Shown: piece by piece, positions 1,617-17,619 of the stretch
Numbering within the stretch: the first letter of the stretch is position 1
Layout: every line of letters starts with the position of its first letter
Source of the DNA: an uncultured virus (IMG/VR IMGVR_UViG_3300013383_000003)
Taxonomy: Duplodnaviria > Heunggongvirae > Uroviricota > Caudoviricetes > Crassvirales
Virus record (IMG/VR): IMGVR_UViG_3300013383_000003
Strand: one strand, 5' to 3'
Length of the DNA stretch: 64,000 nt
The notes under the pieces: generated by a model
Databases searched by the model: none
What the model saw: only the letters and a program-made list of their open reading frames with translations
Told to the model about the DNA's origin: nothing
Position numbers and translations under genes: made by a program

Positions 1617-1619
1617 ATT

Positions 1620-2008: not shown

Positions 2009-2043
2009 AATCCACTTATGCTATTGTGTAGGTGGATTTTTTT
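2009..2043 (+). terminator. rho-independent terminator
   Basis: AATCCACTTATGC-TATT-GTGTAGGTGGATT followed by a T run. Confidence 0.8.
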
Positions 2044-2046
2044 ATT

Positions 2047-2056
2047 TACATTTGCA
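2047..2056 (+). promoter_or_regulatory. Bacteroidota-type -7 promoter element (TAnnTTTG) for lysis genes
   Basis: TACATTTGCA, ending 22 nt before the ATG at 2079. Confidence 0.65.
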
Positions 2057-2078
2057 GGTGTGAAATATTTTAATACAA

Positions 2079-2699: not shown

Positions 2700-3057
2700 C
2701 CTTGGGATAATAATTACTGGTGGTATAGGAGCTCTTACCACTATAGTAAGTGGTTGGGCATCATGGTTCTACACACGTAGAAAATATAATAGTGAGGTTG
2801 ACTCTAATGTGATTCACAATATGAAAAGTTCTTTAGATTTTTATGAACAACTTACTACAGATACTAATAATAGATTGAAGGAAGTATTACAAAAAAATAA
2901 AGAGCTGGAAACTCAGGTAAATAATCTGAGAAACCAACTATTTAACTTGATGTCTTCAATATGCACAGACTTAACCTGTCAGTTAAGACAGCACAATGAA
3001 GAGAAATTAAAAAATATAAATGATACTAACGCTGGAAAGAAAGTGGAAGAAAAGTAA
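2692..3057 (+). CDS. putative holin-like membrane protein
   Basis: N-terminal hydrophobic helix plus coiled coil; overlaps both neighbours and precedes the endolysin. Confidence 0.55.
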   Translation: MIDLGIIITGGIGALTTIVSGWASWFYTRRKYNSEVDSNVIHNMKSSLDFYEQLTTDTNNRLKEVLQKNKELETQVNNLRNQLFNLMSSICTDLTCQLRQHNEEKLKNINDTNAGKKVEEK

Positions 3058-3484
3058 CTATACTATAGGCAACTTATATATAGATGGTAAATACTTCTGT
3101 GATACTCTTGAAGATGCTGATAGAGGATTGAAAGATACAATGTCACTAGAAGAAATAAAAACATTAAAACAGCCTTCAATTACCGCTATTCCTATAGGTA
3201 CTTATAAAATCACTTTAGATGTGGTAAGTCCTAAGTTTAGTCAATACCCATTTTATAAGAATATTAATGGTGGAAGAGTGCCCAGACTTTTAAATGTAAA
3301 AGGCTTTGATGGTATCTTATTACATGTAATGGATGGTAAGAAAGGGGCTAAACTAAGCTCAGGCTGTATAGGTGTAGGTAAGAATCTTATTAAAGGAGGA
3401 CTACTATTAGGTAAAGAGTATTACAAGAAGTTGTATGATACACTTCTTCCATATAAAGATAATATAACTATAAAAATAATTTAA
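3020..3484 (+). CDS. putative endolysin, DUF5675 family
   Basis: YTIGNLYIDG.YFCDTLED, TAIPIGTY and LLH...SSGCIGVG (His/Cys pair). Confidence 0.75.
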   Translation: MILTLERKWKKSNYTIGNLYIDGKYFCDTLEDADRGLKDTMSLEEIKTLKQPSITAIPIGTYKITLDVVSPKFSQYPFYKNINGGRVPRLLNVKGFDGILLHVMDGKKGAKLSSGCIGVGKNLIKGGLLLGKEYYKKLYDTLLPYKDNITIKII

Positions 3485-3486
3485 GT

Positions 3487-3633
3487 ATGGCAAAACCAAA
3501 GAAAGTAACTAAAGTACCTACTAAAACTACGCAGAAGAAGACTCAGAGTAAATATAGACCATTGCCTATGTCTCCTACTGCAGGTATTAACAGAGGACAT
3601 AGACTTGGGTGTGGAGGGAAACTTAAAAAATAG
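3487..3633 (+). CDS. small basic protein (48 aa; not in ORF track)
   Basis: ATG 3487 to TAG 3633 reads MAKPKKVTKVPTKTTQKKTQSKYRPLPMSPTAGINRGHRLGCGGKLKK and fills the gap after the endolysin. Confidence 0.65.
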   Translation: MAKPKKVTKVPTKTTQKKTQSKYRPLPMSPTAGINRGHRLGCGGKLKK

Positions 3634-4000
3634 ATATTGTAAGCTATTACTATTGATATTGAAATATATACCAATGGTAATAGCTTTATGCTATATAATA
3701 AATTCTATATATTATATAGCACCTTTAAGTAATATAGCAGGAATGTCACTTTTTACTTGGATATTTTTCTATGTGTCCTCAATAGTATTCAAGTTTTGTG
3801 TATATCATCAAATGTTTTTATGGTATATACTTATAGATGATGTGATTAACATTACGGCTTTTTACTGGAATATATCAATGGAGCTGCTAAGAGTACTTAA
3901 AGGATTTAGTGTTTCTATAGGGATAGTATTATTCATAATATTGATTGTATATGTTAAATATAGTAAAGCAACACCTACAAAAAATTATAGAAGATATTGA
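3611..4000 (+). CDS. multi-pass membrane protein
   Basis: 3-4 hydrophobic segments. GTG at 3611 is the likely start; the track gives TTG at 3605. Confidence 0.65.
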   Translation: MEGNLKNRYCKLLLLILKYIPMVIALCYIINSIYYIAPLSNIAGMSLFTWIFFYVSSIVFKFCVYHQMFLWYILIDDVINITAFYWNISMELLRVLKGFSVSIGIVLFIILIVYVKYSKATPTKNYRRY

Positions 4001-4241
4001 TTTAGGCAATAGTAATCTTACAGAAGAAGATGCTTCTATAGTAATAGGCCTTATAAGAAAATATACTGATAAAACTAAGAGGCTAAGTAAGTATCAAGCT
4101 TGTAAGAAACTTAATGTCAGTAGAGCTACATTTGATAATATGGTAAGAGCTGGTAAGATACCTAAAGGAATAAAGGAACAAGGATTTAAAGAATTATCTT
4201 GGACAGAAAAAGACCTTGACAATGTTATAAAAGGATATTAG
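3951..4241 (+). CDS. HTH DNA-binding protein (AlpA/excisionase-like)
   Basis: LSKYQACKKLNVSRATFDNMVRAGKIPKG...LSW. Confidence 0.75.
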   Translation: MLNIVKQHLQKIIEDIDLGNSNLTEEDASIVIGLIRKYTDKTKRLSKYQACKKLNVSRATFDNMVRAGKIPKGIKEQGFKELSWTEKDLDNVIKGY

Positions 4242-4267
4242 CATTATGTTTAAAATTATGATGTAAG

Positions 4268-4305
4268 AAACACTCATAGAGTCAATACTTTATGGGTGTT
4301 TTTTT
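4268..4305 (+). terminator. rho-independent terminator flanked by TTAGCATTAT direct repeats
   Basis: 15-bp stem AAACACTCATAGAGT/ACTTTATGGGTGTTT plus T run; repeats at 4238-4247 and 4312-4321. Confidence 0.75.
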
Positions 4306-4344
4306 ATGCCCTTAGCATTATTAGGTTTATAATAATATAATACA

Positions 4345-4354
4345 TACCTTTGCC
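4345..4354 (+). promoter_or_regulatory. Bacteroidota-type -7 promoter element for the 5-gene cassette
   Basis: TACCTTTGCC upstream of ATG 4395. Confidence 0.6.
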
Positions 4355-4394
4355 ATGTAAAGCTTTACAACAATTTTTTAATACTTATTTAACT

Positions 4395-5288
4395 ATGGAA
4401 AAAACTTATGTATTTGATTCTGCTGATAACAGCAGCTTTAACTCTTCTGCAATCTTAGCTAGTTTAATGCAGAATAAAGGAATTGACCCTAATCTTATGG
4501 CTATGCTTACCAGTGCTTCAAGAAATCAAGATGCTTGGGGAGGCAGTGGCTGTTGGTTTATGTGGGTGATACTTCTCTTCTGGTTATGGGGAGGTAGAGG
4601 TAATGGTATGTTTGGTAATGATACTAATGGCATACCAAATCAACTTAACAATGACTTTGGTAGAGATGTACTATTACAGGCTATTAATGGTAATGCCCAG
4701 GCTATAAGTCAGCTTGCTACTACTCTTAACTGTGACATTAATGCTGTACAAGGAGCTATTAGTAATGTTCAAAACTCTGTACAGGGTATAGCTTCTCAGC
4801 TTGGTATGACTGGACAGCAAGTTATTAATGCTATACAACAGGGCAATTGTCAACTTGGTAATCAGATGGCACAATGCTGCTGCACTATACAGGATGCTAT
4901 AACAAGAACTAATTATGAAAATCAATTGTCTAATGTTAATCAGACTAACACCCTTCAGAATGCTATTAATTTTGTAAATAGCTCTGTAGAAAGAGGATTT
5001 TCTTCTACTGCTTATGCTACAGCACAGCAGACTTGTGATTTAAAGAATGCTATTGCTCAGCAGACTACTCTTATTAATGATAAATTCTGTCAATTAGAAA
5101 TGAGAGAAATGCAGAATAAGATAGATGCCCTTAGACAAGAAAATAATAATCTTGTATTAGCAGCTTCTCAACAAGCTCAAACAGCTAATATAATTAATCA
5201 AGTAAGGCCTACTCCTACACCTGCTTATGTAGTAGCCAATCCTTATTGTAATTGTGGTAGTCCTTATAATAATGGGTGTAATTGTTAA
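4395..5288 (+). CDS. Gln/Asn/Cys-rich protein of unknown function
   Basis: True start is likely ATG 4395 (MEKTYVF). Contains a Trp-rich hydrophobic segment, a Q/N-rich helical region, QCCC and a C-terminal CNC..GCNC. Confidence 0.8.
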   Translation: MEKTYVFDSADNSSFNSSAILASLMQNKGIDPNLMAMLTSASRNQDAWGGSGCWFMWVILLFWLWGGRGNGMFGNDTNGIPNQLNNDFGRDVLLQAINGNAQAISQLATTLNCDINAVQGAISNVQNSVQGIASQLGMTGQQVINAIQQGNCQLGNQMAQCCCTIQDAITRTNYENQLSNVNQTNTLQNAINFVNSSVERGFSSTAYATAQQTCDLKNAIAQQTTLINDKFCQLEMREMQNKIDALRQENNNLVLAASQQAQTANIINQVRPTPTPAYVVANPYCNCGSPYNNGCNC

Positions 5289-5307
5289 TCATTAAATAGT
5301 ATATGTT

Positions 5308-5718
5308 ATGTCAGTAGTAATATCACCTGTAGGATTAGCAGCTGCTCCTGTAGCTAATGTTGCTAATATTATGGCTACTTTTAAAGAAAAATTGTGTAGA
5401 GCATATTGTGTAGATTCTACTATACAGCCTCAAGTATCTTTAGTTTATACTGTAGGTACTGCCAGACTTATAGAAAGTACTGTATTTATACCAATACAAG
5501 CAGTAATTACTATAGTAACACAAACAGAATGTTGTGGATGTAATGCTCACACACAGTTATTTACAGAAAACTTTGTAGTAGCTTTTCAAGGTCAGACAGC
5601 AGTTCCTACTACTATAACAGTAGCTAATATAGGAAGAGATGCCTTTGGCTCTAATATACATTGTGGTAAAGCCTATAGCTATACTATAAATGATTCTTTA
5701 ACTATAACAATTGCTTAA
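5308..5718 (+). CDS. hypothetical beta-rich, Cys-containing protein
   Basis: 136-aa ORF in the cassette, rich in V/T/A, with a CCGC motif. Confidence 0.7.
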   Translation: MSVVISPVGLAAAPVANVANIMATFKEKLCRAYCVDSTIQPQVSLVYTVGTARLIESTVFIPIQAVITIVTQTECCGCNAHTQLFTENFVVAFQGQTAVPTTITVANIGRDAFGSNIHCGKAYSYTINDSLTITIA

Positions 5719-5736
5719 TTTTAAAAATAGAATAAT

Positions 5737-6243
5737 ATGTTTTCAAATCTGAGAGCTAATAGTCAATTATATATATTACATAAAGATAATACTCCTTATG
5801 TAGAGATAGGGCAAGTAGTAAGTGTATCTCAGCCCATGCCAAGATACCAAGTTAATAATTTTATGTCACCACAAGAGTTAGTGGTAGATATAGTAGTAAA
5901 TGTTAATGGTAATAACATTACATTACAGAAGCTTCCTGCTAATTTAGATGTAGCAGACCAAGGAACTGCTAATGGTTCTCTGTTTATATCTACTACAAAA
6001 GAATCTATGAATAATGAGATAACCTTACTCAGACAGAAAAGCCTTGATATACTTAATAGCACTGACTATCACAAGAAAATAATACAGGATTGCGAGATAC
6101 TACTTCAAAGATTAAATCCTGAATTTGCAGAACAAAAACAACAAAAACAAGAGATTGATACTTTAAAGACTCAAATGTCTGAATTAATGTCTAATATGAA
6201 AGACTTAATGTCTCAGATAAAAAATGAAACAATAAAATCTTAA
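5737..6243 (+). CDS. hypothetical protein (beta N-domain plus coiled coil)
   Basis: 168-aa ORF in the cassette. Confidence 0.75.
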   Translation: MFSNLRANSQLYILHKDNTPYVEIGQVVSVSQPMPRYQVNNFMSPQELVVDIVVNVNGNNITLQKLPANLDVADQGTANGSLFISTTKESMNNEITLLRQKSLDILNSTDYHKKIIQDCEILLQRLNPEFAEQKQQKQEIDTLKTQMSELMSNMKDLMSQIKNETIKS

Positions 6244-6249
6244 TATACT

Positions 6250-6483
6250 ATGGGGAAAATATTTCGTGTTATTGATGAAGCAGATGATTATATGTATAAT
6301 CAGAGAGGCTATAGTCAGAGGGAATCTGATGAAAGAATGCTTGAAAAAGCTTTTAAAGAAGGTTGTGAGCATGGCTATAAGAAAGCCATGAGAGAGCTTG
6401 AGGGTTATGGTGAAAGAAGTTCTCATGCTTTTAGAGAAGGTTTTGAAGAAAAGTTAGAAAGACTTAAGAAACGGTATGAATAG
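6250..6483 (+). CDS. small charged hypothetical protein
   Basis: 77 aa, E/R/G/Y-rich, with an AF(K/R)EG repeat. Confidence 0.7.
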   Translation: MGKIFRVIDEADDYMYNQRGYSQRESDERMLEKAFKEGCEHGYKKAMRELEGYGERSSHAFREGFEEKLERLKKRYE

Positions 6484-6485
6484 TT

Positions 6486-6875
6486 ATGAGGCAGAATTTC
6501 AGAATTAATAAATATGGATGGAATGTCATAATCTATTATACAGTAAATGATGTAGAGAAGAAAGAAATCAAAGATATGCTTGCAGGAATAAATTATAAAA
6601 CTTTATCTTCTATAGAAGTTAATCTTGATAAAGCAGAACTTGACACAGGATTTACTTATTCAGATTATGATAAATACTATTCCATAATAGTCATTCATAA
6701 AGCATCTAGTATAGGGGAATTTATCAATACTTTTGAGCATGAGAAAAACCACTTAGAGATGCATATCTGTGAAGCATTAGACATTAATCCTTACTCAGAG
6801 GAAGCAGCTCACATGAGTGGTGACTTAGCCCAATTAATTCTTGAAGAAGCTTTATATGCTATAGTAGAACTTTAA
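6486..6875 (+). CDS. HExxH-motif (zincin-like) small protein
   Basis: FEHEKNHLEMH...SEEAAH. Confidence 0.65.
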   Translation: MRQNFRINKYGWNVIIYYTVNDVEKKEIKDMLAGINYKTLSSIEVNLDKAELDTGFTYSDYDKYYSIIVIHKASSIGEFINTFEHEKNHLEMHICEALDINPYSEEAAHMSGDLAQLILEEALYAIVEL

Positions 6876-6878
6876 TAT

Positions 6879-6914
6879 GAGGGGGGGGGCATTATAAGTG
6901 TCCCCCTTATTTTA
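6879..6914 (+). terminator. rho-independent terminator containing a G9 tract
   Basis: GAGGGGGGGGGCATTATAAGTGTCCCCCTTATTTTT. Confidence 0.75.
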
Positions 6915-6959
6915 TATAAGCACTTTTCTTAAAGTATTTTTTATATTTCCTATTTATAG

Positions 6960-6969
6960 TATCTTTGCA
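6960..6969 (+). promoter_or_regulatory. Bacteroidota-type -7 promoter element for the capsid operon
   Basis: TATCTTTGCA upstream of ATG 7003. Confidence 0.7.
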
Positions 6970-7002
6970 TTGAAGTTTAATTTAAAAAAGAGAAGTGTAG
7001 TT

Positions 7003-8139
7003 ATGGAAGGATTATCACTAGATAATATTACAACAGGAGAAGAGGCAGCTGCACTCTTTTCAGAAGAAACACAGAATGAAAGTACTGAAGAGGTACAAAG
7101 TTCTGAAACAAATGAAGAAGGAGAAAATAAAACTACTGAGGTTATAGATGCAAGCAAATTGTTTGCAGAAGAGCCAGAGAGCGTAGGTAGTGAAGATAAT
7201 AGTAAGGAACAGGAAGATACCTCTTCTAAAGAGGTAACTTCTCCAAACTTCTACTCTTCCATTGCCAAAGCCTTTGCAGAGGATGGTATCTTCCAAAACC
7301 TTAATGATGATTCTCTTTCTAAGGTAAAAGATGCTGAAACTTTTAGAGATTTAATAGAGCAACAAATTAAATCGGAACTTGATGAGAGACAGCAAAGAAT
7401 TGATGATGCCCTTAATGCAGGAATAGAGCCTACAAGAGTACAACAGTATGAGAATAACATGAATATTCTTAATAGTATCTCTGATGAAGCTATTGAAGAA
7501 GAAGGAGAGAAAGGAGAAAACCTTAGAAAGAACATCATTTATGAAGATTATATACAAAGAGGTTTCAGTAAAGAAAGAGCTACTAAAGCAGTAGAGAGGT
7601 CTATAGCTGCTGGAACTGATATAGAAGATGCAAAAGAAGCATTGCAAAGTTGTAAGGAACAAGTTAAGAATGCTTACGATATTGCAGTGAAAGAAGCAAA
7701 GGAAGAAAAAGCAAATGAAGAGAAAGAGCTTTTAAATCAAGCAGAAGCTCTTAAAAATTCAATTCTTTCTGATAAAAAACCATTTGGAGATTTGGAGATA
7801 GATAAGAGTACAAGACAAAGAGTATTTGATGCTATAGCCAAACCAATTTATACAAATCCTAAGACAGGGGAAAGACTTACTGCTATACAAAAGTTTGAAG
7901 CAGAAAACCATAATGACTTTATGAAATATATAGGACTTACTTATGTATTAACTGATGGTTTTAAATCTCTTGATGGGTTAGTTAAAGGTAAAGTAAAGAA
8001 AGAAGTAAAGAAGGGTCTTAAAGAGTTGGAGCATACATTAAATAATACTGCAAGAAACTCGGATGGTACACTTAAATTTGCAAGTGGTGTAACCTCTGAC
8101 CCAGAATCTATGCTTAAGAATTTTACATTAGATATATAG
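7003..8139 (+). CDS. acidic capsid-assembly (scaffold-like) protein upstream of MCP
   Basis: Likely start is ATG 7003 (MEGLSLD). Very acidic N-terminus, coiled-coil body, directly before the MCP. Confidence 0.7.
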   Translation: MEGLSLDNITTGEEAAALFSEETQNESTEEVQSSETNEEGENKTTEVIDASKLFAEEPESVGSEDNSKEQEDTSSKEVTSPNFYSSIAKAFAEDGIFQNLNDDSLSKVKDAETFRDLIEQQIKSELDERQQRIDDALNAGIEPTRVQQYENNMNILNSISDEAIEEEGEKGENLRKNIIYEDYIQRGFSKERATKAVERSIAAGTDIEDAKEALQSCKEQVKNAYDIAVKEAKEEKANEEKELLNQAEALKNSILSDKKPFGDLEIDKSTRQRVFDAIAKPIYTNPKTGERLTAIQKFEAENHNDFMKYIGLTYVLTDGFKSLDGLVKGKVKKEVKKGLKELEHTLNNTARNSDGTLKFASGVTSDPESMLKNFTLDI

Positions 8140-8162
8140 TTTTATTTTTTTAATTTAATATT

Positions 8163-8219
8163 ATGGCAGGAAAACTTAACAAGTTTCAAATATCCCCAGT
8201 CTTTGAGGGATGGCAGGGT
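8163..8219 (+). CDS. MCP exon 1
   Basis: MAGKLNKFQISPVFEGWQG; ends in the U of the P1 U-G pair. Confidence 0.88.
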
Positions 8220-11200
8220 TGACCTAAAGTTAGGCCCTGGATAAATCGGGTAAAAACGGTGAAAGCCTTTTGGGGTGGTTAATACCGTGCTAATTTAATT
8301 AGTAATATAATTAAACAGTGTAACGCGTAGAGAATGAACCTTTGCTATCAATATATAGAGAAGTGTCTTTATAGTTATTTGTGAAAATAAATTTTAGTAA
8401 AGAATATAATTTCTCCAAGAGTGCCCGACACTTTAATAGAGTGAAAATGTACGCTGAGCTTACACAATAATAAAGTGTAAGAACCAAAGGATAAAAAGCC
8501 TTTGGGTTAACAAAATGCTAACAAAGTTGAATCACTTATCATCAGCTTTTGCTCTTGCACCACAGAAAGCTTCTAACCTTATGGTAGAACTATTGGCATA
8601 TAACAGGGGTAATACTCTTAATACTTATATCAGCAAATTGCCTGTACGCACTTTTCAGGATGATGGTGAGTATTATTGGGATATTATTACTAGTGCTAGA
8701 AAAAATATTCCTTTGGTTGAAGCTAGGGATGAAAATGGTACACAAATTACAGCTGCTTCTACAGGTATGGTAGGTGCTGGTACTGCACCCTTCTATTTGG
8801 TATTTGCAGAGGATTATTTCGCTAAATACTTTGGCGCATTATAATGTAAGTTATAATTGAAAATTGGGCAAAAACGGTGAAAGCTGAAATGCTAATACCG
8901 TGCTAATTTATAATGTAATAATTATAAATAGTGTAGAGAGTAGAGATTGAAACTATGCGAGGGTTTATTTATATTATAAAAAATGATATTAATTCAAAAG
9001 TTTACATAGGACAGACCACAAGAGCTTTAAAAGATAGATGGAAAGAACATTTAAGGACTAAATGCTCCAAGAATGAAAACAGTATGCTTATAAAAAAGGC
9101 TATCCATAAATATGGCTCTTCTCATTTTAGGATAGAGTTATTAGAAGTTTGTAATAAAGCTTCATTAAATGAAAGAGAGATGTATTACATACATCTATAT
9201 AATTCATATCATCAAGGGTATAATAGAACTTTAGGAGGACAATCTGGTTCTAAACCTATAAAACTTAAGAATAAACAAAATGAAATTGTTGAACTATATC
9301 AGTATGGTTTTTCAATTAAGTATTTAGCTCAAGAATATAATGTAGATAAAGCTACTATTAAACATGTGTTATTAATTAATAATGTGACTATTAGAGATAT
9401 TCGTTCTGTAAAATATTCTACAGAGGAGCGACAAGCTATATTAGAAGATACTAAGTTATTACCTAGAAATATAGTTATGAAAAAATGGAATATCTCAGCT
9501 AGTTATCTGTCACAACTTATAAATAACAAGCGTAGAATATAACATCTCCAAGAGTGTCCAACACCCTTGATATAGGGTGAAAATGTACTCCGAACTATAG
9601 AGAATAAAATCTATAGAATTAAAGGATAAAGAGCCTTTAAGTTAACATATGAAAGGAGAGGTAATTTTTGGTAACCTAAATCAAGTATATCCTATTAGAA
9701 TATTGGATGATGCAAGGCTTGAAGGAAGTAATGTGGTTTATCGGGTAGAGCTTATGGGTGGTAACCAAGCTGGTATACCTGTAGATAGACTGCAAGCTGG
9801 TGAAAGATTCTCTGTAGGATTTGCTCCTGTAGAAAGAGAGCTGTCAAGAAAAGTAGGAAGTGTAAGATTTAATACACCAGTATCTATGCGCAATGAATGG
9901 ACTACTATTAGAATACATGCCAAAGTTTCAGGTGCTATGCTTAATAGAAAATTGGCTGTAGGTATTCCTATGAAGGATGAAAATACAGGTAAGACATTTA
10001 TTGCTAATAAGTGGATAAACATAGTGTGTTCACTTGCAGCGTAAGTTGCAAAAAATAAATTCCTCTAATTGCTGGAAACTCCTGTTAGAGTATTTATACT
10101 ACAAGTAAAAACAAAATAGTACATTAAATGTAAGGAATTATGACCAATGTAGAAATTGTAAAAAATATAAAGGGTTTTGAAGGAAGATATACAATATCTA
10201 ATCTAGGTATTGTAAGAAGTTTACTTACTAATAAAGTAATGAAACTTAGCATAACTTCTAAAGGTTATGCTAGAGTAAATCTTCGATATGCACATAGTAG
10301 AAAATTTAAGGCTTTCTTAGTACATAGATTAGTAGCAGGTAATTTTATTCCTAATCCTAATCATTATAAGGAATTAAATCATAAAGACTGTAATAGATTA
10401 AATAATAATGTCTCTAATTTAGAGTGGTGTGATAGAAGCTATAATGTGAAATATTCATATTCAAAAGGCAAAGCTTCAAATAAAGGAGAAAAGAATCCAA
10501 ATGCTAAGCTAAATTCTAAAGATGTTATGATTATAAAAGCTATGCTAAAATCTAGAAAATATAGTCAAACTTATATAGCAAAGCTTTTTAAGGTACATCC
10601 TAATACAATTGGAATGATTAATACCAAAAATACTTGGAGTGATAATTAAATACTAGGGACAATCAGCAGCTAAGACTTATTGTGAAATAAGTAAAGTTCA
10701 ACGACTAGTAAGTCCTCTTAATGAGGCATAAGCCTAAGTAGGCTGAAATGGGGAACCCCTTTTAGGGTGAAGATATAGTCTAATCTTAATGGAAACATTA
10801 AGCTGGAAACAGGATTAATAGTAACGACATTAATTAAATAGTATAGTAATATACAATGGCACTATATGGATTGGGTATTGGAGCAGCAATGGGAAGACTA
10901 CAAGAATCTTGCAATGGCTTGGGGTACTTCAAACCGTAATGCTAATGGCCAATACCTTAACTTTGGTGATTCAGGAGAAGCTATCAGGATGGGTAGTGGT
11001 CTTTTTGAACAAATGGAAGTTGCTGGTACTCAATATTATACAAACTTCTCATTGAAAATGATTGAGAATGCTCTTACAGAACTTGTGGCTAATTCTAACC
11101 TCCCTATGAAGGATAGAGTATTTGTACTTAGAACAGGTCTTAGAGGAGCTACTCAATTTAGTAAAGCAGTGGGTGATACTGTATCAGGGTGGACTCAATT

Positions 11201-12940
11201 TACAGTAAATGCAGATAACTTAGGCATTGTGCAGAAGACAAATAATGTAATACATCCTAATGCTCTTGCAGCAGGTTATCAATTTACTGAATTTAGAGCA
11301 CCTAATGGTATAATCATTAAAGTTGAAGTCGACAATTTTTATGATGACCCTGTAAGCAATAAGATGCAGCATCCTCTCGGAGGTCCTGCAAGTTCATATA
11401 GATATGACATTATGGAGATTGGTACTCCAGACCAGCCTAAATTATATTGGGCCTCATAGAGGTAACTCTATGATAAACTTTGAGCAAAAACGGTGAAATC
11501 TTCCAAGAATATTTGGGATATTAAATACATTAGAGAATGTAGAGAAAAGAAAGGTATGAGAAATAGAGATATTTATTCTTTATATCCTAATGTATCACAT
11601 ACTGCTATAGACCAGGTATTAAACTATAAAAGTTATAGATAACACCGTGCTAACTTAATATTTAACATTATTAAGTAGTGTAGAGAGTAGGACTTGAAAC
11701 TATTAATAGAATATAATAGTCCCACGAGTGTTCAACATCTGTACAATATAGTACAGATGAAAATGTACTCCGAACTATAGTGATGGCAAAACTATAGAGT
11801 ATCAAGATAAAGAGCTTGGTAGATAACATTATTTGAATATAATAAAGTGTGAGATTGAAGGACAACCTGAGTATAGAGGTATTCAAGCTGGTATGAGGAA
11901 TCCTTTTACAGGAGCTATGGAAAATAACTTTATGAGTACTGACGAGGATAAACAATTAATGTCCCTTAGTATAGAAATATACTAAAGCAAACAGGGCAAA
12001 AACGGTAAAAATCTATTTGAAATATTAAGTAATATATTCTATATACATGAGTAGTTTAGATTATAAATATATAAAAGGTTATAATAATAAATATTATATC
12101 ACTAGAGATGGTAAAGTATATATCTCTAATTATAGAAATACAGGTAAGCCTAAAGAAATGAAACCTAGAATAATAGCTGGATATTTAGCTTTAGGATTGG
12201 AAGGAAATACTGTAGAAGGTATTAGGAATCAAAAGATACATAAAATACATAGACTTATAGCAGAAGCTTTTGTTCCAAATCCAGAAAATAAGCCTTGTAT
12301 TAATCATATTAATGGTAATAAATTAGATAATAGAGTTGAAAATTTAGAGTGGGTTACTATAGAAGAAAATACTAGACATGCCTATGCTAATAAACTGGCA
12401 CAATGTTGGTGGACTAAAGAGCTAGGAATTGTATGTATAAACTTAATAGAAAATTACAAATATAACTTTGCAGATGTTGCAAGATTATATAAGCTAAGTT
12501 CTAGACAAAATATCTGTTGGTTTTGGAAAAGTGGTTACAAAACTTTTAATCTAAAACATTCTAACCCTTTTATTCCAAAACATAGTAAAAAGTTACCAAT
12601 ATCAGAGGAATATAAAAAATATATATTAAAGTTACTTGAAGACAATACCGTGCTAAATAATCTTTCTAAAAGAAGATTATCAGTGTAACGAGTAGTAGCT
12701 GAACCCCTTTTAACTAAGGGAATATAATGTTACCACGAGTGTCCTGCACCTTAATTATAAACATAAAAGGTGATAATATACTCTAAACTTATAGGATAAT
12801 AAACTATAAGAGCTACAGATAAAGAGCTGTAGGATAATTACAATTTGAGTGCAACTATTCATAAAATGGCTACATTTGGTGTAGCAGTTCTTGACCCAAC
12901 AAGAACTATGTCCTTTATACCGTCTATATTACAAGGTTAA
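8163..12940 (+). CDS. major capsid protein, spliced: join(8163..8219,8518..8823,9652..10016,10859..11438,11836..11949,12848..12940), 504 aa
   Basis: Exons sum to 1515 nt and give one open frame: MAGKLNKFQ...WQG|LTKLNHL...DYFA|KGEVIF...NKWM|HYMDW...PDQP|NIIKC...TDED|SATIHKM...PSILQG*. Recognisable as a crAss-like MCP. Confidence 0.93.
8220..8517 (+). mobile_element. group I intron 1 (298 nt, no ORF)
   Basis: P1 CAGGGU/GCCCUG, P10 GUUAG/CUAAC, P3 UCGGGUA/UGCCCGA, P4 ACGGU/ACCGU, P7 GCGUA/UACGC; terminal G 8517. Confidence 0.92.
8518..8823 (+). CDS. MCP exon 2
   Basis: LTKLNHL...AEDYFA, 102 codons. Confidence 0.9.
8824..9651 (+). mobile_element. group I intron 2 (828 nt) with GIY-YIG endonuclease
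   Basis: P1 CGCU/GGCG, P10 CUUU/AAAG, P3 UUGGGCA/UGUCCAA, P7 GAGUA/UACUC; terminal G 9651. Confidence 0.92.
8955..9542 (+). CDS. intron-encoded GIY-YIG homing endonuclease
   Basis: GFIYIIKN..NSKVYIGQT, RWKEH, E..YI and GYN motifs; C-terminal HTH repeats. Confidence 0.92.
   Translation: MRGFIYIIKNDINSKVYIGQTTRALKDRWKEHLRTKCSKNENSMLIKKAIHKYGSSHFRIELLEVCNKASLNEREMYYIHLYNSYHQGYNRTLGGQSGSKPIKLKNKQNEIVELYQYGFSIKYLAQEYNVDKATIKHVLLINNVTIRDIRSVKYSTEERQAILEDTKLLPRNIVMKKWNISASYLSQLINNKRRI
9652..10016 (+). CDS. MCP exon 3
   Basis: KGEVIFGN...IANKW plus AT (phase-2 junction). Confidence 0.9.
10017..10858 (+). mobile_element. group I intron 3 (842 nt, different core type) with HNH endonuclease
   Basis: P1 AAGUGGAU/GUUCACUU and P10 AUAGUGU/GCACUAU; core AAUUGCUGGAAA..AAUCAGCAG..GUUCAACGACUA..AAGAUAUAGUCU; terminal G 10858. 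Confidence 0.92.
10140..10649 (+). CDS. intron-encoded NUMOD4-HNH homing endonuclease
   Basis: IKGFEGRYTISNLGIVRS, VHRLVA..FIPNP, NHKDCNRLNN.VSNLEW; C-terminal HTH. Confidence 0.92.
   Translation: MTNVEIVKNIKGFEGRYTISNLGIVRSLLTNKVMKLSITSKGYARVNLRYAHSRKFKAFLVHRLVAGNFIPNPNHYKELNHKDCNRLNNNVSNLEWCDRSYNVKYSYSKGKASNKGEKNPNAKLNSKDVMIIKAMLKSRKYSQTYIAKLFKVHPNTIGMINTKNTWSDN
10859..11438 (+). CDS. MCP exon 4
   Basis: G plus HYMDWVLEQQ...IGTPDQP. Confidence 0.9.
11439..11835 (+). mobile_element. group I intron 4 (397 nt) with decayed endonuclease remnant
   Basis: P1 GCCU/GGGC, P10 UUAUAUU/AAUAUAA, P3 UUGAGCA/UGUUCAA, P7 GAGUA/UACUC; terminal G 11835. Confidence 0.9.
11517..11642 (+). pseudogene. remnant of homing endonuclease C-terminal HTH
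   Basis: DIKYIRECREKKGMRNRDIYSLYPNVSHTAIDQVLNYKSYR*, in the same loop that holds the intact HNH gene in intron 5; no nuclease domain. Confidence 0.6.
11836..11949 (+). CDS. MCP exon 5 (missed by ORF track)
   Basis: NIIKCEIEGQPEYRGIQAGMRNPFTGAMENNFMSTDED. Confidence 0.88.
11950..12847 (+). mobile_element. group I intron 5 (898 nt) with HNH endonuclease
   Basis: P1 GGAU/GUCC, P3 CAGGGCA/UGUCCUG, P4 ACGGU/ACCGU, P7 GAGUA/UACUC; terminal G 12847. Confidence 0.9.
12047..12688 (+). CDS. intron-encoded HNH homing endonuclease
   Basis: IHRLIAEAFVPNPENKPCINHINGNKLDNRVENLEWVT; the C-terminus (EDNTVLN...SV) overlaps the ribozyme core. Confidence 0.92.
   Translation: MSSLDYKYIKGYNNKYYITRDGKVYISNYRNTGKPKEMKPRIIAGYLALGLEGNTVEGIRNQKIHKIHRLIAEAFVPNPENKPCINHINGNKLDNRVENLEWVTIEENTRHAYANKLAQCWWTKELGIVCINLIENYKYNFADVARLYKLSSRQNICWFWKSGYKTFNLKHSNPFIPKHSKKLPISEEYKKYILKLLEDNTVLNNLSKRRLSV
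12848..12940 (+). CDS. MCP exon 6 (missed by ORF track)
   Basis: SATIHKMATFGVAVLDPTRTMSFIPSILQG*. Confidence 0.88.
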   Translation, partial: SATIHKMATFGVAVLDPTRTMSFIPSILQG

Positions 12941-12960
12941 TAGGACTATAAAATATAAGT

Positions 12961-12991
12961 AAAAAGGGGAGGAAGAATCCTCTCCTTTTTT
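12961..12991 (+). terminator. terminator after MCP
   Basis: AAAAAGGGGAGGA-AGAA-TCCTCTCCTTTTTT. Confidence 0.85.
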
Positions 12992-13014
12992 AAATATAAA
13001 AAGATAATATAAAT

Positions 13015-13989
13015 ATGGCAAAGGAAGAGATAGAAGGAGTACTTAATAGTACTGAAAATAGTGAAACAGAAATGCCTAAAACAGGCAAAAGAGGTAGAAA
13101 AGCAACAGTTGAAGAAGAGGAACGCCCTTTAATAAACTGTCTTAGGAATGAAAGAGTAATAGTAAGACATATTAATAAACCTAATAGCAGAATTACTAAT
13201 CCAAAGCATGTGCTATATGGAGGTATGGCAGAAGGTGCAAAGAGGATTTTCTGTGTTCCTATGTTATCTTCAGGAAGATACGTTAATGTGCTTACAGATG
13301 ATGAAAAGAAGTTTCTTGAAAATATAATGGGGCTTGAGCCTAATGCTCTTAGTATCTATAGAAAGGTAGACAACTTCTGGGACGATAGTAATAGTACAGG
13401 TATATCAAAAGTAGTACTCGGTAAACAAGATAATTATCTTGATTTAAGTACCCCAGAAGATTATATCAAATATAAAATATTACTTGCTAATAAAGAGTAT
13501 ATAGCACCTTCCTTAGAGGAGCTTGAAAATATGCATAAAGCTACTTATCAATTTGTTATAATCACAGAAAGTTCTGAGTCTAAGATGGCACAAGATAATA
13601 TGTCTGTTACTATGAAATGTTATACTATGTATGGTAAACTTGAAGATAATATAGGAGCATTAAGACATATTGTAGAAACTCTTACAGGTAATAGATTTTC
13701 ATCTGTTACAAAAAAAGAGTTTCTTCAAACTAAGATTAATGAACTTATTCAAGCTAATCCAAAAACATTCCTCAAAGTAGCAACTGACCCAATGCTTAAT
13801 ACCAAAGTATTGATTAAAAAATGTGTTGAAGCAGGTCTTATAGCACAAAGAGGTAATCAGTACTATATTAGAGAAGGTAATGTGCCTATGTGTGATAATG
13901 GTGACCCTACATTAAATGTAGCTGCACAATGGCTTAATTTACCAAAGAATCAAACAATAAAACTTAGTTTAGAAGCTAAGTTACAATAA
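13015..13989 (+). CDS. conserved crAss-like protein following MCP
   Basis: 324-aa ORF; position in the capsid module. Confidence 0.7.
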   Translation: MAKEEIEGVLNSTENSETEMPKTGKRGRKATVEEEERPLINCLRNERVIVRHINKPNSRITNPKHVLYGGMAEGAKRIFCVPMLSSGRYVNVLTDDEKKFLENIMGLEPNALSIYRKVDNFWDDSNSTGISKVVLGKQDNYLDLSTPEDYIKYKILLANKEYIAPSLEELENMHKATYQFVIITESSESKMAQDNMSVTMKCYTMYGKLEDNIGALRHIVETLTGNRFSSVTKKEFLQTKINELIQANPKTFLKVATDPMLNTKVLIKKCVEAGLIAQRGNQYYIREGNVPMCDNGDPTLNVAAQWLNLPKNQTIKLSLEAKLQ

Positions 13990-14012
13990 TATATTAATTA
14001 CTTAATAAGCCC

Positions 14013-15269
14013 ATGACTAATTTAGAGTTTAGTAATGAATTTGATGTACTATATAATAGTATAACCAGTAACCAAGCTCCTGGGCTTGATGAATATGAAA
14101 AGAGTGTCTTTTTAACTAAGGCACAATCTGAAATACTTAGAGAATATTTCAATCCTAGAATTGATGCTGCTAATGGTGGATTTGATGGTAGTCAAAAAAG
14201 ACAATATGACTTCTCTACTTTAATAAGAACAGCAAATCTTTTTAATGTAAACAGCATTAAAGAAAGAATAACTGATATAGAGAAAATAGACAGAAGAAGT
14301 CTTGTATTTCTTTTTCCTCAAGATTACTTTTTAAGTGTTAATGAGGTAGTATATGATGGTAATAAAGCTTTCTCAGTATTACCAATAAGCTATGATACTT
14401 ATCAAAGACTCATGTTAAAGCCTTATACTATGCCTGTAAAAAAAGGAGTATGGAGATTATTCACTGACAAGAAAAATTGTAACTTTGTGCAGGAATATGT
14501 AGACAATAGTCAGACAGATTATAAGATGCTTACAACATGGGCAGACCAAAAGAGAAACCTTAAAATTAAAATAAGGCATATAGGCAATGTACCAGCTGAA
14601 GAAGTAAAAGAAACATTTACTGTATCAAATAATACTATGTGGTACAAAGATACCTATAAGGGTAACGAAGAAGCTTTTATTAATACTACAAGCAAACTAA
14701 CTGCTAATTGTGAATGGAATGAAGATTTTCTTACTTACAATATATATCTTAATTTTGCAAGTTCACTGGAACTTGATGATGAGGAGGTAATACAGTCTAT
14801 AAGAAATGGTTTTGACCAACTAAAAGCTTATAGAGGAGATGATTGGGAAATTAGAAATGGAGATTTAGAGAAAGCAGCTAAAAGACTCGACAATCTTCAC
14901 CAAGCTGAAGCTCCTAGTAAGTTTGAAAACTTTAGTACTAAAGATACATCTAATCCTGTAGAAGTAATAGGTAAAACCTTTACTACAGAAGTAATACAGC
15001 TGCCTATAGCAGAAGTAATAGGTAGAATAAGTAAAGATGCTTCTTATCAACTTAGGTATGTAAAGAAGCCTACTCCTATTATTCTTACAGACTTTACAGG
15101 AGATGAAGTGTCTATTGAAGGAATGCAAAAAGAAACTCAGTGTGAGCTTCCTACACAGCTACATCAAGAAATCCTTGAAAGGGCTGTAACACTAGCTAAG
15201 ATAGCTTATCAAGCAGGAGCTACTGCTACTATGGCAAGACAAGCTAATAACAATAATCAACAGCAGTAA
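14013..15269 (+). CDS. tail ring/adaptor protein with large internal insertion
   Basis: Paralog of the next gene (FSNEFDVL, LDEYEKSV.LT.AQ, KP.PIIL, LH..ILERAV); synteny with crAss ring proteins. Confidence 0.7.
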   Translation: MTNLEFSNEFDVLYNSITSNQAPGLDEYEKSVFLTKAQSEILREYFNPRIDAANGGFDGSQKRQYDFSTLIRTANLFNVNSIKERITDIEKIDRRSLVFLFPQDYFLSVNEVVYDGNKAFSVLPISYDTYQRLMLKPYTMPVKKGVWRLFTDKKNCNFVQEYVDNSQTDYKMLTTWADQKRNLKIKIRHIGNVPAEEVKETFTVSNNTMWYKDTYKGNEEAFINTTSKLTANCEWNEDFLTYNIYLNFASSLELDDEEVIQSIRNGFDQLKAYRGDDWEIRNGDLEKAAKRLDNLHQAEAPSKFENFSTKDTSNPVEVIGKTFTTEVIQLPIAEVIGRISKDASYQLRYVKKPTPIILTDFTGDEVSIEGMQKETQCELPTQLHQEILERAVTLAKIAYQAGATATMARQANNNNQQQ

Positions 15270-15271
15270 TT

Positions 15272-15973
15272 ATGACTATAGAGGAGTTTAGCAATGAGTT
15301 TGATGTTCTGCTTAATAGCTATATAGTAAATCTTCCTTTAGGAACTGATAAAACTATTAGAGAACTAGATGAATATGAAAAATCTGTACTACTTACAGCA
15401 GCCCAAGAAGCTGTAGTTAATGACCTTTATAATGGCAGACTTACAGGAGAAGGATTTGAAAGTACTGAAGAACAAAGAAGGTATCTTGAAAATCTTATAA
15501 AAACTGTAGAACCTGAAGTAGTAGATACTGAATTGCCACATATCTCAGAATACTCAGTGTTTTATAAAACTCCTGAGGATTTATGGTATATTACTTATGA
15601 AGTTGCTACATTAAAGGATGAAAATATTAATTGTGGTGTAGATATAGCTGTAGAAGTAGTTCCTGTAAAACAGGATGAATATCATAAAATAAAAAATAAT
15701 CCTTTTAGGGGAGCTTCTGATAAAAGAGTATTGAGAGTAGATACAGGAAGCTCTATATTAGAGATTGTCTCCAAGTATAAAATAATAAGGTACTTTATAA
15801 AGTACATTAGTAAACCTAAACCAATAATTCTTGTAGATATAACCAATGATGGTTTGTCTATAAATAATGAAACTAAACCAATGACATGTATGCTGAATAC
15901 AGCATTACATAGATTAATCCTTGAGAGGGCTGTTTCCATTGCTATTAAGAGGCTTCCTCAAGGTAATGTTTAA
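15272..15973 (+). CDS. tail ring/adaptor protein
   Basis: Paralog of the preceding gene; synteny. Confidence 0.7.
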   Translation: MTIEEFSNEFDVLLNSYIVNLPLGTDKTIRELDEYEKSVLLTAAQEAVVNDLYNGRLTGEGFESTEEQRRYLENLIKTVEPEVVDTELPHISEYSVFYKTPEDLWYITYEVATLKDENINCGVDIAVEVVPVKQDEYHKIKNNPFRGASDKRVLRVDTGSSILEIVSKYKIIRYFIKYISKPKPIILVDITNDGLSINNETKPMTCMLNTALHRLILERAVSIAIKRLPQGNV

Positions 15974-15991
15974 CTTAAATCAAAATAAACA

Positions 15992-16972
15992 ATGGCATTT
16001 TTTTCTGTAAATCAGAACAGGCAATTTTATGTTGCCACTAAGTTAGCAACTGCTACACCTGCTACAAAAGGTGAAATTAAATTAGGTAATGATGCTGACA
16101 AATCTCACATGTACTTTCAATACATGGGAGTAGATGGTCTTGAAAGAACAGACCTTATTGATGTAAATAAAGTAATGTATGCTAAGTTTACTAAGGCTGC
16201 TGACATGGCTAAGAAACTTAAGACAGCTACTGTTACTTTGAAAGGTGATATTAATGGGGGTGCTCCTATTTCTGGTCAAGATTATATATTGAATATTAAT
16301 ATTCAAGGTTATGTGGGTAAATCTGATGCTAATCAGCTTACTAAGTTTGGTGCAGTACATGCATTCAAGAGTACTGATGCTTCAACTTTCTACAAAGAGA
16401 TGGCTATATCTCTTGCTAATAACTTTAGTAGAGAAATAGTACCTTTGTTTAAATTCTATATTAAGACTGCTAAATCTCAAGTAGAAGTTAAAGCAGGAAC
16501 TAAAGTAGAAGCTCTTACTGATGCTGCTACAGGGCTTATTATAGAAGAGGCTGTGCAACCTTGGAAACTTGGTTCTGCTGCCTTTACTGGGGTATTGTTT
16601 GATGTATATCCTACTACTGTACAGTATGAAGGTGATGAAGTACAGTGGGGTGAGGTAGTAAAGGGAGAATCTGCTACTACTATAGGTAATGGTAAAAAAA
16701 TTGCAGAACTTGAATACTTCTGTATGGGTGAACGAGGAGACCAATATAGAGGTGTTGAAGGTCCTAAATATGCTATCCCTGTAGAATATAGTGTTGACCC
16801 ATCTAAGACCTATAATCTGTTGGACATACATTATTACTTCTTAGGTTCTGGCATTGATGCTGTAAAGTCTGAGAAAGACCTTACAATAGCTTTTGAATCT
16901 TCTGTAGATGTAGCCACTTTGGTTACAGCATTGGGAGACCTGGGTATTACTGTAACAGACCCTAACACTTAA
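15992..16972 (+). CDS. auxiliary capsid (decoration) protein
   Basis: A/T/K-rich 326-aa protein with an LEYFCMGERGD.YRG motif, followed by its own terminator; synteny. Confidence 0.6.
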   Translation: MAFFSVNQNRQFYVATKLATATPATKGEIKLGNDADKSHMYFQYMGVDGLERTDLIDVNKVMYAKFTKAADMAKKLKTATVTLKGDINGGAPISGQDYILNINIQGYVGKSDANQLTKFGAVHAFKSTDASTFYKEMAISLANNFSREIVPLFKFYIKTAKSQVEVKAGTKVEALTDAATGLIIEEAVQPWKLGSAAFTGVLFDVYPTTVQYEGDEVQWGEVVKGESATTIGNGKKIAELEYFCMGERGDQYRGVEGPKYAIPVEYSVDPSKTYNLLDIHYYFLGSGIDAVKSEKDLTIAFESSVDVATLVTALGDLGITVTDPNT

Positions 16973-16991
16973 TAATAAAATATAATAATAT

Positions 16992-17022
16992 AAGGGAAGG
17001 GTAATACCTTCCCTTTATTTTT
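16992..17022 (+). terminator. rho-independent terminator
   Basis: AAGGGAAGG-GTAATA-CCTTCCCTT plus T-rich tail. Confidence 0.8.
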
Positions 17023-17031
17023 CTATACACT

Positions 17032-17619
17032 ATGATACAATTTAGTACTTTAAAGATTACCTCTGATGGTCAGGAATTGCTCATTAGTGCTTATGTTCCA
17101 CTAGAGGAATATTATGATGATGTTCTTATAGAATCTATAGCCATAGATACTCAAGATACTTTTAATGCCAATGGTGTAAGCAGTAATCCTATCTATAGAG
17201 AATCTTTTGTATACACAGACCCTAAGACACTTAAAGAAGTTAAAGGTAGAAAAGAGATTAACTTAGTGCTTAATAATAAGGCACTTAAAAATATCTCTCT
17301 GCAAGATAATATTTTATACATATATCTTATTGCTTCAGGAACTCCAGCTCCTAATACCCCTTGTGGCATGGATAATGCTACTTCCTTAGGAGTAGTTTGC
17401 AGCCTTAATAAAATCTATTCTACAGGTCTTAAATACTTAAAAGAAGTATCTAATAACTGTAGTATTCCTCAATCTTTTATAGATTTTATATGCCAATACA
17501 AAGCTTTGGATTTGGCTATAAGAACAAAGAATTATATCCAAGCTAATAAATATTGGAATAAATTCTTTAAGGGAACTATTGCTAACACTAAAACATCGGG
17601 ATGTGGCTGTACTGGATGA
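17032..17619 (+). CDS. tail hub-like structural protein
   Basis: 195 aa ending GCGCTG; synteny. Confidence 0.55.
   Translation: MIQFSTLKITSDGQELLISAYVPLEEYYDDVLIESIAIDTQDTFNANGVSSNPIYRESFVYTDPKTLKEVKGRKEINLVLNNKALKNISLQDNILYIYLIASGTPAPNTPCGMDNATSLGVVCSLNKIYSTGLKYLKEVSNNCSIPQSFIDFICQYKALDLAIRTKNYIQANKYWNKFFKGTIANTKTSGCGCTG

Follow-up and report, generated by a model that had tools for sequence, protein, structure and literature searches.

The major capsid protein (MCP) gene of a Steigviridae-like crAss-like phage from the gut is very probably split by five group I introns, the splicing of which would restore its reading frame. The gene was analyzed in a stretch of 64,000 nt, referred to here as the 64-kb window, and the coordinates of its parts are listed in Table 1. 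The arrangement of six exons and five introns, which had been proposed in the initial annotation, is confirmed. Joined together, the six exons (57 + 306 + 365 + 580 + 114 + 93 = 1515 nt) form a single frame of 504 codons plus stop codon with no internal stop. The introns sum up to 3263 nt (298 + 828 + 842 + 397 + 898), and the recalculated intron share of 68% of the 4778-nt locus matches the value given initially.

Table 1. Exons, introns and the downstream hairpin of the MCP locus; positions are those of the 64-kb window.
Feature	Position	Strand	Length	Description
MCP exon 1	8163..8219	+	57 nt	codons 1-19, ATG start; in-frame join to exon 2
Intron 1	8220..8517	+	298 nt	without ORF; P1 6 bp, P10 5 bp; covarying core helices
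MCP exon 2	8518..8823	+	306 nt	PF23898 positions 18-121, E 1.5e-28; homologue alignment
Intron 2	8824..9651	+	828 nt	P1 4 bp, P10 4 bp; covariation; predicted GIY-YIG ORF 8955-9542
MCP exon 3	9652..10016	+	365 nt	3′ end in codon phase 2; PF23898 positions 121-240, E 8.5e-41
Intron 3	10017..10858	+	842 nt	predicted group I of the RF00028 type; P1 9 bp, P10 7 bp; predicted endonuclease ORF 10140-10649 in the P5 loop
MCP exon 4	10859..11438	+	580 nt	PF23898 positions 242-429, E 7e-68
Intron 4	11439..11835	+	397 nt	P1 4 bp, P10 8 bp; 49-aa ORF 11493-11642 in the P5 loop
MCP exon 5	11836..11949	+	114 nt	PF23898 positions 430-474, E 1.2e-7; homologue alignment
Intron 5	11950..12847	+	898 nt	P1 4 bp; core motifs 11999-12010 and 12644-12656
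MCP exon 6	12848..12940	+	93 nt	including TAA stop; PF23898 positions 469-495, E 6.9e-6
Terminator-like hairpin and T-run	12965..12995	+		directly after the MCP stop codon

The exon path was verified by comparison with uninterrupted capsid proteins. Searched singly against the Pfam family Crass_capsid (PF23898, 496 positions), exons 2 to 6 matched in collinear order and together span positions 18-495; exons 2 to 5 each scored above the cut-off of 27 bits, and exon 6 lay slightly below it with 25.2 bits. The residues encoded by exon 1 align with the MCP N-termini of IAS virus and cr85_1, exon 4 shares 68% identity with the MCP of cr116_1, and the C-terminus is a near residue-for-residue match to that of IAS virus. 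In an alignment of the joined product with the intron-less MCP of IAS virus, the gene of which is also 1515 nt long, 356 of 507 columns are identical and none of the five junctions carries a gap, in agreement with the proposed splice path. The codon split by intron 3 encodes a methionine that is conserved within a WMH motif. A preference of the introns for highly conserved parts of the protein was considered but found no support: among all windows of the protein, the conservation within ±6 residues of the five sites falls at percentiles 50, 57, 49, 88, and 57, which is not above average. Weak matches to Rfam sRNA families near the locus correspond to the terminator-like hairpin listed in Table 1.

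The splice sites follow the rules described initially: all five introns are preceded by a U and end in a G, and in each of them the exon end is part of a P1 helix (6, 4, 9, 4, and 4 bp in introns 1 to 5) with a terminal U·G pair. The P1 helices of introns 2, 4, and 5 are short, with just 4 bp each. A P10 helix directly adjoining the P1 strand was found in introns 1 to 4 (5, 4, 7, and 8 bp), and its restriction to these four introns was borne out, as the corresponding pairing in intron 5 amounts to 3 bp at an offset of 3 nt and was counted as absent. The boundaries of intron 4 carry an ambiguity of 2 nt in the comparison with the contig L005 described below, which lacks this intron, and the proposed boundary is the only one that places a U before the intron and a G at its end.

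Intron 3 is predicted to be a canonical phage-type group I intron. The Rfam model RF00028 yielded no group I match in the whole window at the gathering threshold or in positions 8000-13100 at E-values up to 10, and intron 3 was missed in both scans because the endonuclease ORF inside hid it. Searched apart from this ORF, the 3′ part scored 55.1 bits against RF00028 (gathering threshold 50, E 1.1e-13, model positions 74-253) and the 5′ part reached 16.8 bits (E 0.013, model positions 1-83). With RF00028, a group I covariance model of the kind proposed in the initial annotation as a means of verification, the 3′ part of intron 3 was recognized once the ORF was left out, and introns 1, 2, 4, and 5 were not recognized. 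In the Rfam alignment, intron 3 carries two hairpins in an insertion between P7 and P3′, and its P7 shows an unpaired base followed by a G-C pair, judged by eye to be the same pattern as in the other four introns.

Introns 1, 2, 4, and 5 are classed as paralogs of a single divergent family. Against RF00028, intron 1 alone reached 10.8 bits (E 2.8), and introns 2, 4, and 5 gave no match at E-values up to 10. A covariance model of the family (R1) scored 129.2 bits for intron 4 and 126.1 bits for intron 1, the latter being a training sequence. Since Rfam does not recognize these four introns, their group I label is based on the structural alignment made here, which supports a group I core consisting of P3 to P9 with the P3/P7 pseudoknot and P7.1.

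In this alignment of nine distinct members, the helices P3, P4, P6a, P7, P7.1, P9, and P9.1 show standard pairs in every cell, with two to four pair types at most positions, i.e., compensatory changes. Over all helices, 85.9% of the cells pair, including P2 and P8, which are out of register and need a per-subgroup shift; at most 74.0% was reached in 500 shuffles, and 33-49% when the partners were slid. Within P7, column 157 is unpaired and the adjacent pair 158-244 is G-C in all nine members, and by its position this pair is presumably the guanosine site. In a second alignment of 82 distinct 3′ halves from IMG/VR, 95-98% of the cells in P8, P9, and P9.1 hold pairs, and none of 500 shuffles reached any of the observed measures; this alignment was fitted to the covariance model and is therefore biased to the structure of the model, and helix 1 of the alignment, with 77.6% paired, is an artefact of RNAalifold. 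A covarying helix of 5 bp, which encloses an ORF or a small hairpin, directly follows P7 in the four paralogs. This extra helix between P7 and P3′, P7.1, is the single feature that suggests an assignment to subgroup IA. Motifs of the family were found in at least 112 IMG/VR stretches, and 66 of 80 motif-bearing loci have no similarity to the capsid protein analyzed here, which places the family in other genes and other phages. These finds point to a widespread phage group I family that the Rfam model does not score, and model-based intron counts may be too low.

Three of the introns encode putative homing endonucleases, one of the GIY-YIG and two of the HNH type, as identified by Pfam and by matches to PHROG homing/HNH families. 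The ORF of intron 2 sits in the loop of P7.1, the helix after P7, and contains a GIY-YIG domain (PF01541, E 4.2e-10) and HTH_7; it matches phrog_7168 (E 1.4e-24). The ORF of intron 3 contains NUMOD4 and HNH_3. In intron 5, the ORF (12047-12688) starts in the P5 loop and extends over P4′ and P6; it matches HNH_3 (PF13392, E 8.1e-12) and phrog_59 (E 4.6e-37). The small ORF of intron 4 has no match in Pfam or PHROG. Its interpretation as a remnant of the C-terminus of an HNH endonuclease was rejected after a BLASTP comparison with the intron 3 protein (E = 24).

As far as it is testable, the absence of interruptions from all other genes of the 64-kb window, as claimed initially, was supported. 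None of 39 other ORFs in the window contains a homing-endonuclease domain, the core motifs of the family do not occur in the window outside introns 1, 2, 4, and 5, and a search of the whole window with the family covariance model and filters off returned the four copies, then weakly intron 3, and nothing else. A hidden interruption of thyX or of the genes in 48.8-52.3 kb was considered and discarded, as the gaps are filled by small ORFs and have no Rfam match. Elsewhere in the window, the crAss-like gene set is intact and densely coded.

Presence and absence of individual introns was observed directly in close relatives. The independent contig L005, which is 99.6-99.7% identical, lacks exactly positions 10017-10858 (intron 3) and 11439-11835 (intron 4); it has introns 2 and 5 in the positions where the window has them. 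At least introns 3 and 4 are therefore dispensable. Of the six exon differences to L005, three, at positions 10011, 10862, and 11841, are synonymous and lie no more than 6 nt from a junction of these two introns; one of these three changes an A-C mismatch to a G-C pair in the P1 of intron 3. In the ORF of intron 2, the two sequences differ by an indel of 1 nt. Such a natural pair with and without introns is suited for homing and fitness tests. In L022, another relative, sites 1 and 2 are both occupied by introns with the same layout of exon 1 and intron, and its site-1 intron contains a GIY-YIG ORF. The intron of cr111_1 (NC_055880) shares 84% identity with intron 2, and an ORF-less intron of cr116_1 (NC_055882) is a full-length match to RF00028 (71.4 bits).

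Intron sites and numbers vary between close relatives. At least 12 distinct insertion sites were found in the capsid genes of relatives, with intron bounds set partly by eye and those of L001 approximate, and the description of the capsid gene as an intron hotspot is thus supported. Partial loci with about three capsid introns exist as well (L083). Five introns are the maximum among 117 sampled capsid loci, of which 96 show no interruption; these counts are lower bounds from a biased sample, since the best 80 of 414 relatives favor uninterrupted genes and the motif loci (3 kb each) favor intron-bearing ones, and site-1 introns are missed, so that the window itself was scored as 4. The intron load had been called extreme initially, which holds for this sample, but a capsid gene with four interruptions has already been published.

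From these observations, the following course of events is proposed. The whole 4.8 kb would be transcribed into a single pre-mRNA with its end at the hairpin that follows the stop codon, in which each intron would fold as a group I ribozyme. Free guanosine would attack the phosphate 3′ of the last U of the exon, held in P1 by the U·G pair, and the freed exon end would then attack behind the last G of the intron, the next exon being positioned by P10 in introns 1 to 4. Five such splicing events would restore the 504-codon frame. The predicted endonucleases of introns 2, 3, and 5 (GIY-YIG, HNH, and HNH, respectively) presumably cleave the capsid alleles of co-infecting relatives that lack the intron, the repair of which would copy the intron in; introns 1 and 4 may have lost their endonuclease gene or may never have had one. 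The presence/absence polymorphism points to selfish mobility. A further step, which is possible but rather doubtful, would be to regard the capsid gene as a battleground, on which the stacked introns act as weapons and immunity markers between related crAss-like phages. If true, this would explain the pile-up of introns in one gene and the clustering of synonymous changes where the two polymorphic introns join the exons.

The existence of a 99.6-99.7% identical phage without two of the five introns speaks against the idea that the introns are kept as a regulatory device, in which serial splicing delays or limits capsid synthesis. This explanation draws on the location of all five introns in the most highly expressed late gene, with none found elsewhere in the 64 kb, and on the ORF ends, according to which the frame of every 5′ exon meets a stop codon 0-12 codons into the intron, so that unspliced RNA cannot yield capsid protein. 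It is nevertheless improbable, given that 96 of the 117 loci in the biased sample are uninterrupted, that close relatives differ in intron sites and numbers, that endonuclease genes of a type usual in selfish homing are found in three of the introns, and that the intron family also occurs in other genes and phages (66 of 80 motif loci unlike the capsid). The proposal in the initial annotation that the introns throttle or time capsid synthesis found no support, and the 99.7%-identical phage does without introns 3 and 4.

Even less probable, and indeed very unlikely, is a broken gene that gives rise to separate peptides or to no product, be it in a defective phage or through mis-assembly, although in GenBank the capsid pieces of both cr111_1 and cr116_1 do appear as individual "major head protein" fragments. 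Exons 1, 5, and 6 comprise just 19-38 codons and have no plausible start codon each, intron 3 lies within a codon, and the junctions restore conserved motifs without any indel. Furthermore, ribozyme structure is seen in all five introns, the sites of introns 2 and 5 are likewise occupied in the independent contig L005 and sites 1 and 2 in L022, and the gene set in the rest of the window is intact and densely coded. An MCP gene carrying mobile group I introns that are removed by splicing remains the preferred interpretation.

Phage introns of subgroup IA are known from T4 (td with I-TevI, nrdB, and nrdD) and from Twort (orf142 with three introns). They interrupt essential genes, carry GIY-YIG or HNH ORFs in peripheral loops, possess extra helices between P7 and P3′ and bring in stop codons soon past the 5′ splice site, with several introns per gene in Twort. 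The locus described here shares with them the essential gene, the endonuclease ORFs, the P7-P3′ helices, and the early stops, whereas the T4 and Twort introns belong to another phage group and other host genes, and the four paralogs found here are undetected by RF00028.

For the Jug jumbo phages of the gut, which have Bacteroides-type hosts, essential genes split by numerous group I introns and by endonucleases of the HNH or GIY-YIG type have been described, and metatranscriptome reads support the splicing of their introns (PMC12880540). The examples given in the passages of that paper used here are terL, nrdD, and DNA polymerase genes in genomes of 360-402 kb and do not include the capsid gene. 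The intron endonuclease gp210 of PhiPA3 was reported to give an advantage in competition with a co-infecting phage (Science 2024, PMC11620839).

Group I introns in crAss-like capsid genes, to which the initial annotation had correctly referred, are documented in passages of Yutin et al. (2021; Nat Commun, PMC7886860), where they are called typical of the MCP genes of Delta-group phages. There, the MCP-encoding gene in OLRF01000054, a cMAG of the Zeta group, is found in five fragments, i.e., with four interruptions, and the intervening segments with endonuclease-type domains are read as group I self-splicing introns. That capsid gene resembles the present one in being split by segments with endonuclease-type domains, but it has five fragments versus six exons here, and it was recognized from protein domains, whereas here the junctions and RNA helices were all resolved. 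The phage of the window is nearest to the Steigviridae (Beta group; PMC10136315), a group that the passages of PMC7886860 used here do not single out for introns. Split MCP genes are also present in cr111_1 and cr116_1, which belong to the Steigviridae, the same family as the nearest relatives of the window, and differ from it in their sites: cr111_1 has one interruption between codons 150 and 151, and cr116_1 has two, between codons 62 and 63 and at about codon 456. In both annotations, each MCP piece is given as a gene in its own right, and that of cr116_1 omits the last exon. Capsid genes of crAss-like phages were thus already known to contain mobile group I introns; the present locus adds an unusually heavy load and a full splice map for a capsid gene that is fragmented by gene callers and in the GenBank annotation of relatives, which aids crAss-like genome annotation and capsid phylogenies.

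The six exons of the capsid gene, joined by their coordinates, give 1515 nt without an internal stop codon, and the pieces cover the crassvirus capsid protein profile PF23898 (496 positions) collinearly (18-121, 121-240, 242-429, 430-474 and 469-495). The single reading frame described in the initial annotation could thereby be verified. The capsid gene of IAS virus is uninterrupted and likewise 1515 nt long. In alignments with the intron-less capsid proteins of IAS virus (356 identities in 507 columns) and cr85_1 (309 identities), none of the five junctions carries a gap. The residues spanning the junctions are conserved (junctions marked by a slash: G/LTK, FA/.GE, the M of WMH, which is encoded by a split codon, DQP/NI and DED/SA). 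Each exon frame runs into a stop 0 to 12 codons inside the following intron, so that no capsid protein would be made from unspliced RNA. Such early stops are expected if ribosomes must stay off the ribozyme core.

Structure of the capsid gene locus and interruption sites across the capsid genes examined (positions and codon numbers refer to the window)
Feature	Position	Exon length (nt)	P1 (bp)	P10 (bp)	ORF	Place of ORF
Exon 1	8163-8219	57
Intron 1	8220-8517		6	5	without ORF
Exon 2	8518-8823	306
Intron 2	8824-9651		4	4	195-aa GIY-YIG protein with HTH (8955-9542)	loop of helix after P7
Exon 3	9652-10016	365
Intron 3	10017-10858		9	7	NUMOD4+HNH_3 protein	P5 loop
Exon 4	10859-11438	580
Intron 4	11439-11835		4	8	49-aa ORF, no match to anything searched
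Exon 5	11836-11949	114
Intron 5	11950-12847		4		HNH_3 protein (12047-12688)	P5 loop, continuing into P4'-P6
Exon 6	12848-12940	93
Interruption sites	codons 19/20, 62/63, 121/122, 150/151, 190/191, 242/243, ~285-292, ~322, ~402-409, 436/437, ~456, 474/475

As judged by sequence comparison, the strongest single piece of evidence for this gene structure is the near-identical IMG/VR contig L005. It matches the window at 8920-10016, 10859-11440 and 11836-17395 with 99.6-99.7% identity, and introns 3 and 4 are missing from it. This clean absence identifies both as separate insertions whose ends lie precisely where predicted. The comparison fixes the ends of intron 4 to within 2 nt, and of the possible choices only the annotated one has the intron preceded by U and terminated by G. 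Intron 5 and the portion of intron 2 within the reach of the contig are retained. Exons 3-5 differ from L005 at six positions, of which three, all synonymous, are 4-6 nt away from a junction of intron 3 or 4, the two that are polymorphic, against about 0.14 expected by chance according to our own estimate. One of them, position 10011, forms a G-C pair in P1 of intron 3; with the intron-less allele, A would face C at this point. These differences could be a trace either of co-conversion during homing or of selection on the endonuclease target. Within the intron 2 endonuclease gene, L005 carries one extra A at 9479, so that the C-terminal frame differs between the near-identical phages. The third aligned block contains 14 differences in 5560 nt, including 6 in the 642 nt of the intron 5 HNH ORF, a possible sign that constraint on this gene is relaxed.

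All five introns are preceded by a U and end in G, and each P1 closes with a U.G pair. Introns 1-4 also have a P10, formed between the first bases of the following exon and the intron bases immediately 5' to the P1 strand; nothing comparable was found for intron 5, all as initially annotated. Rfam gave no match on the whole window, nor on the 5-kb locus at E-values up to 10. Intron 3 was missed in these scans because it contains an ORF of 510 nt: in separate searches, the 3' part matches the Rfam group I model RF00028 with 55.1 bits (gathering threshold 50, E = 1.1e-13, model positions 74-253) and the 5' part with 16.8 bits (E = 0.013, positions 1-83 including P1). For comparison, an ORF-less intron in the capsid gene of cr116_1 scores 71.4 bits on the full model; the last capsid exon downstream of it (3426-3572) is unannotated in the GenBank record. 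On RF00028 intron 1 alone reaches only 10.8 bits, although the weak alignment places P3-P7 as the assignment by eye did.

Introns 1, 2, 4 and 5 share sequence blocks found nowhere else in the window, with one 12-mer matching four times against 0.24 expected. Further members of this family were taken from the capsid genes of relatives (L001, L006, L009, L022), the cores were aligned after removal of ORF and loop interiors, and pairs were counted on nine distinct members, L009 being left out as a near-duplicate of L006. Standard pairs occur in essentially every cell of P3 (7 pairs), P4 (6), P7 (6) and the helix after P7 (5), and likewise throughout P6a (8; two unpaired cells), P9 (7) and P9.1 (6); at most positions of these helices two to four pair types are seen. 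The crossing of P3 and P7 is that required for the group I pseudoknot, and a single unpaired base in P7 precedes a G-C pair that is the same in all members. In total, 85.9% of 576 cells are paired with P2 and P8 counted out of register, compared to a mean of 69.8% and a maximum of 74.0% in shuffles and 33-49% with slid partners. P8 pairs once its 3' strand is moved by one column in six members. A helix between P7 and P3' is a mark of subgroup IA. Selles Vidal et al. (PMC11835236) assign more than half of the group I introns of viruses to subtype IA2.

Within the window, a covariance model built on the family's 3' half (R1) matches the four family members alone, with scores of 109-129 bits that follow from its construction; the next match is intron 3 (16.9 bits, E = 0.077). 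On 80 of the IMG/VR loci listed with the P4'-P6 motif, R1 gives 91 matches, 82 of them distinct. In the alignment of these matches, which is fitted to the model and whose first helix is an RNAalifold artefact, 95-98% of the cells of P8, P9 and P9.1 are paired, and none of 500 shuffles reaches any of the measures.

The HNH proteins of introns 3 and 5 are 30% identical (E = 1e-13). At the site of intron 1, the intron of L022 contains a GIY-YIG gene. The ORF-less family member L006:4332-4653 keeps the first ~50 nt of a GIY-YIG frame after the conserved start context and looks like a case of endonuclease gene loss through internal deletion. Taken together with the ORF-less intron 1, this suggests that ORF loss by deletion is common.

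Across the loci examined, the capsid gene is interrupted at no fewer than 12 places. The intron of cr111_1 (about 5931-6846) is 84% identical to intron 2, including the GIY-YIG gene, and sits at codon 150/151 instead of 121/122; one intron lineage therefore occupies different sites in related phages. The family is not capsid-specific: among the matches listed, only 14 of the 80 motif-bearing loci resemble the capsid protein of the window, and two further loci match an SU10-type capsid profile. Similarity to its 3' core is also seen in unannotated regions of Clostridium, Clostridioides, Bacillus, Staphylococcus and Enterocloster phages. The IMG/VR contigs L094, L096/L104 and L103, without crAss capsid similarity, carry three to four copies of the 3' half within 1.5-3 kb, with endonuclease VII-type and GIY-YIG ORFs between them; other genes in other phages are as heavily invaded.

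The window is identified as crAss-like phage DNA by its Pfam matches, including ring, tail hub, muzzle, cargo and auxiliary capsid proteins, family A DNA polymerase, NrdD and ThyX. Over exon 4 the nearest capsids are those of cr116_1 (68%) and IAS virus (66.5%), both Steigviridae, Asinivirinae, a grouping that corresponds to the 'Beta' group (PMC10136315). In-frame TAG codons are present in capsid genes of relatives (two each in L013:2204-3697 and L014:2669-4162, three in L027:3896-5407), as are five in-frame stops, codon kind not distinguished, in L167:6001-7509. This fits the reported stop-codon recoding of Beta-group crAss-like phages; the capsid gene of the window itself has none. No tRNA genes were found in the window. 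As initially annotated, no other gene is visibly interrupted: none of the 39 other ORFs of at least 100 aa has an endonuclease domain, and neither Rfam nor R1 matches elsewhere in the window, a search blind to introns of other families whose ORF is short or of unknown type. Small ORFs fill the apparent gaps at 48.8-52.3 kb. Furthermore, a 396-aa ORF at 426-1616 (+) matches the reverse transcriptase domain RVT_1 (E = 5.9e-17); direct repeats of 40 nt or more, as a possible template/variable pair of a diversity-generating retroelement, were not detected in window 1-8200.

The anatomy of the six-exon, five-intron capsid gene was thus confirmed, whereas the proposal that the introns throttle or time capsid synthesis is unsupported; a near-identical phage does without two of them and most relatives without any. 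The introns are taken to be selfish homing elements, tolerated because they splice. The boldest reading left is that the endonucleases might serve competition between co-infecting relatives, by analogy with the role of an endonuclease in competition with a co-infecting phage described for PhiPA3 (PMC11620839).

Among 117 sampled capsid-bearing loci, a biased sample that includes partial loci and was scored with a method blind to introns after codon 19, 96 are without interruption, 14 have one and 6 have two; the window itself was scored four by the same crude chain, the true number being five. About three interruptions already lie within a 3-kb piece of another contig, L083. Group I introns in crAss-like capsid genes are known from Yutin et al. 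(2021, PMC7886860), who describe them as typical of the Delta group and report a capsid gene of the Zeta group that is split into five fragments. Five introns, initially called extreme, are therefore the highest number seen among the sampled loci, marking the upper end of a continuum rather than something different in kind, and the locus is a further case of an already known phenomenon.
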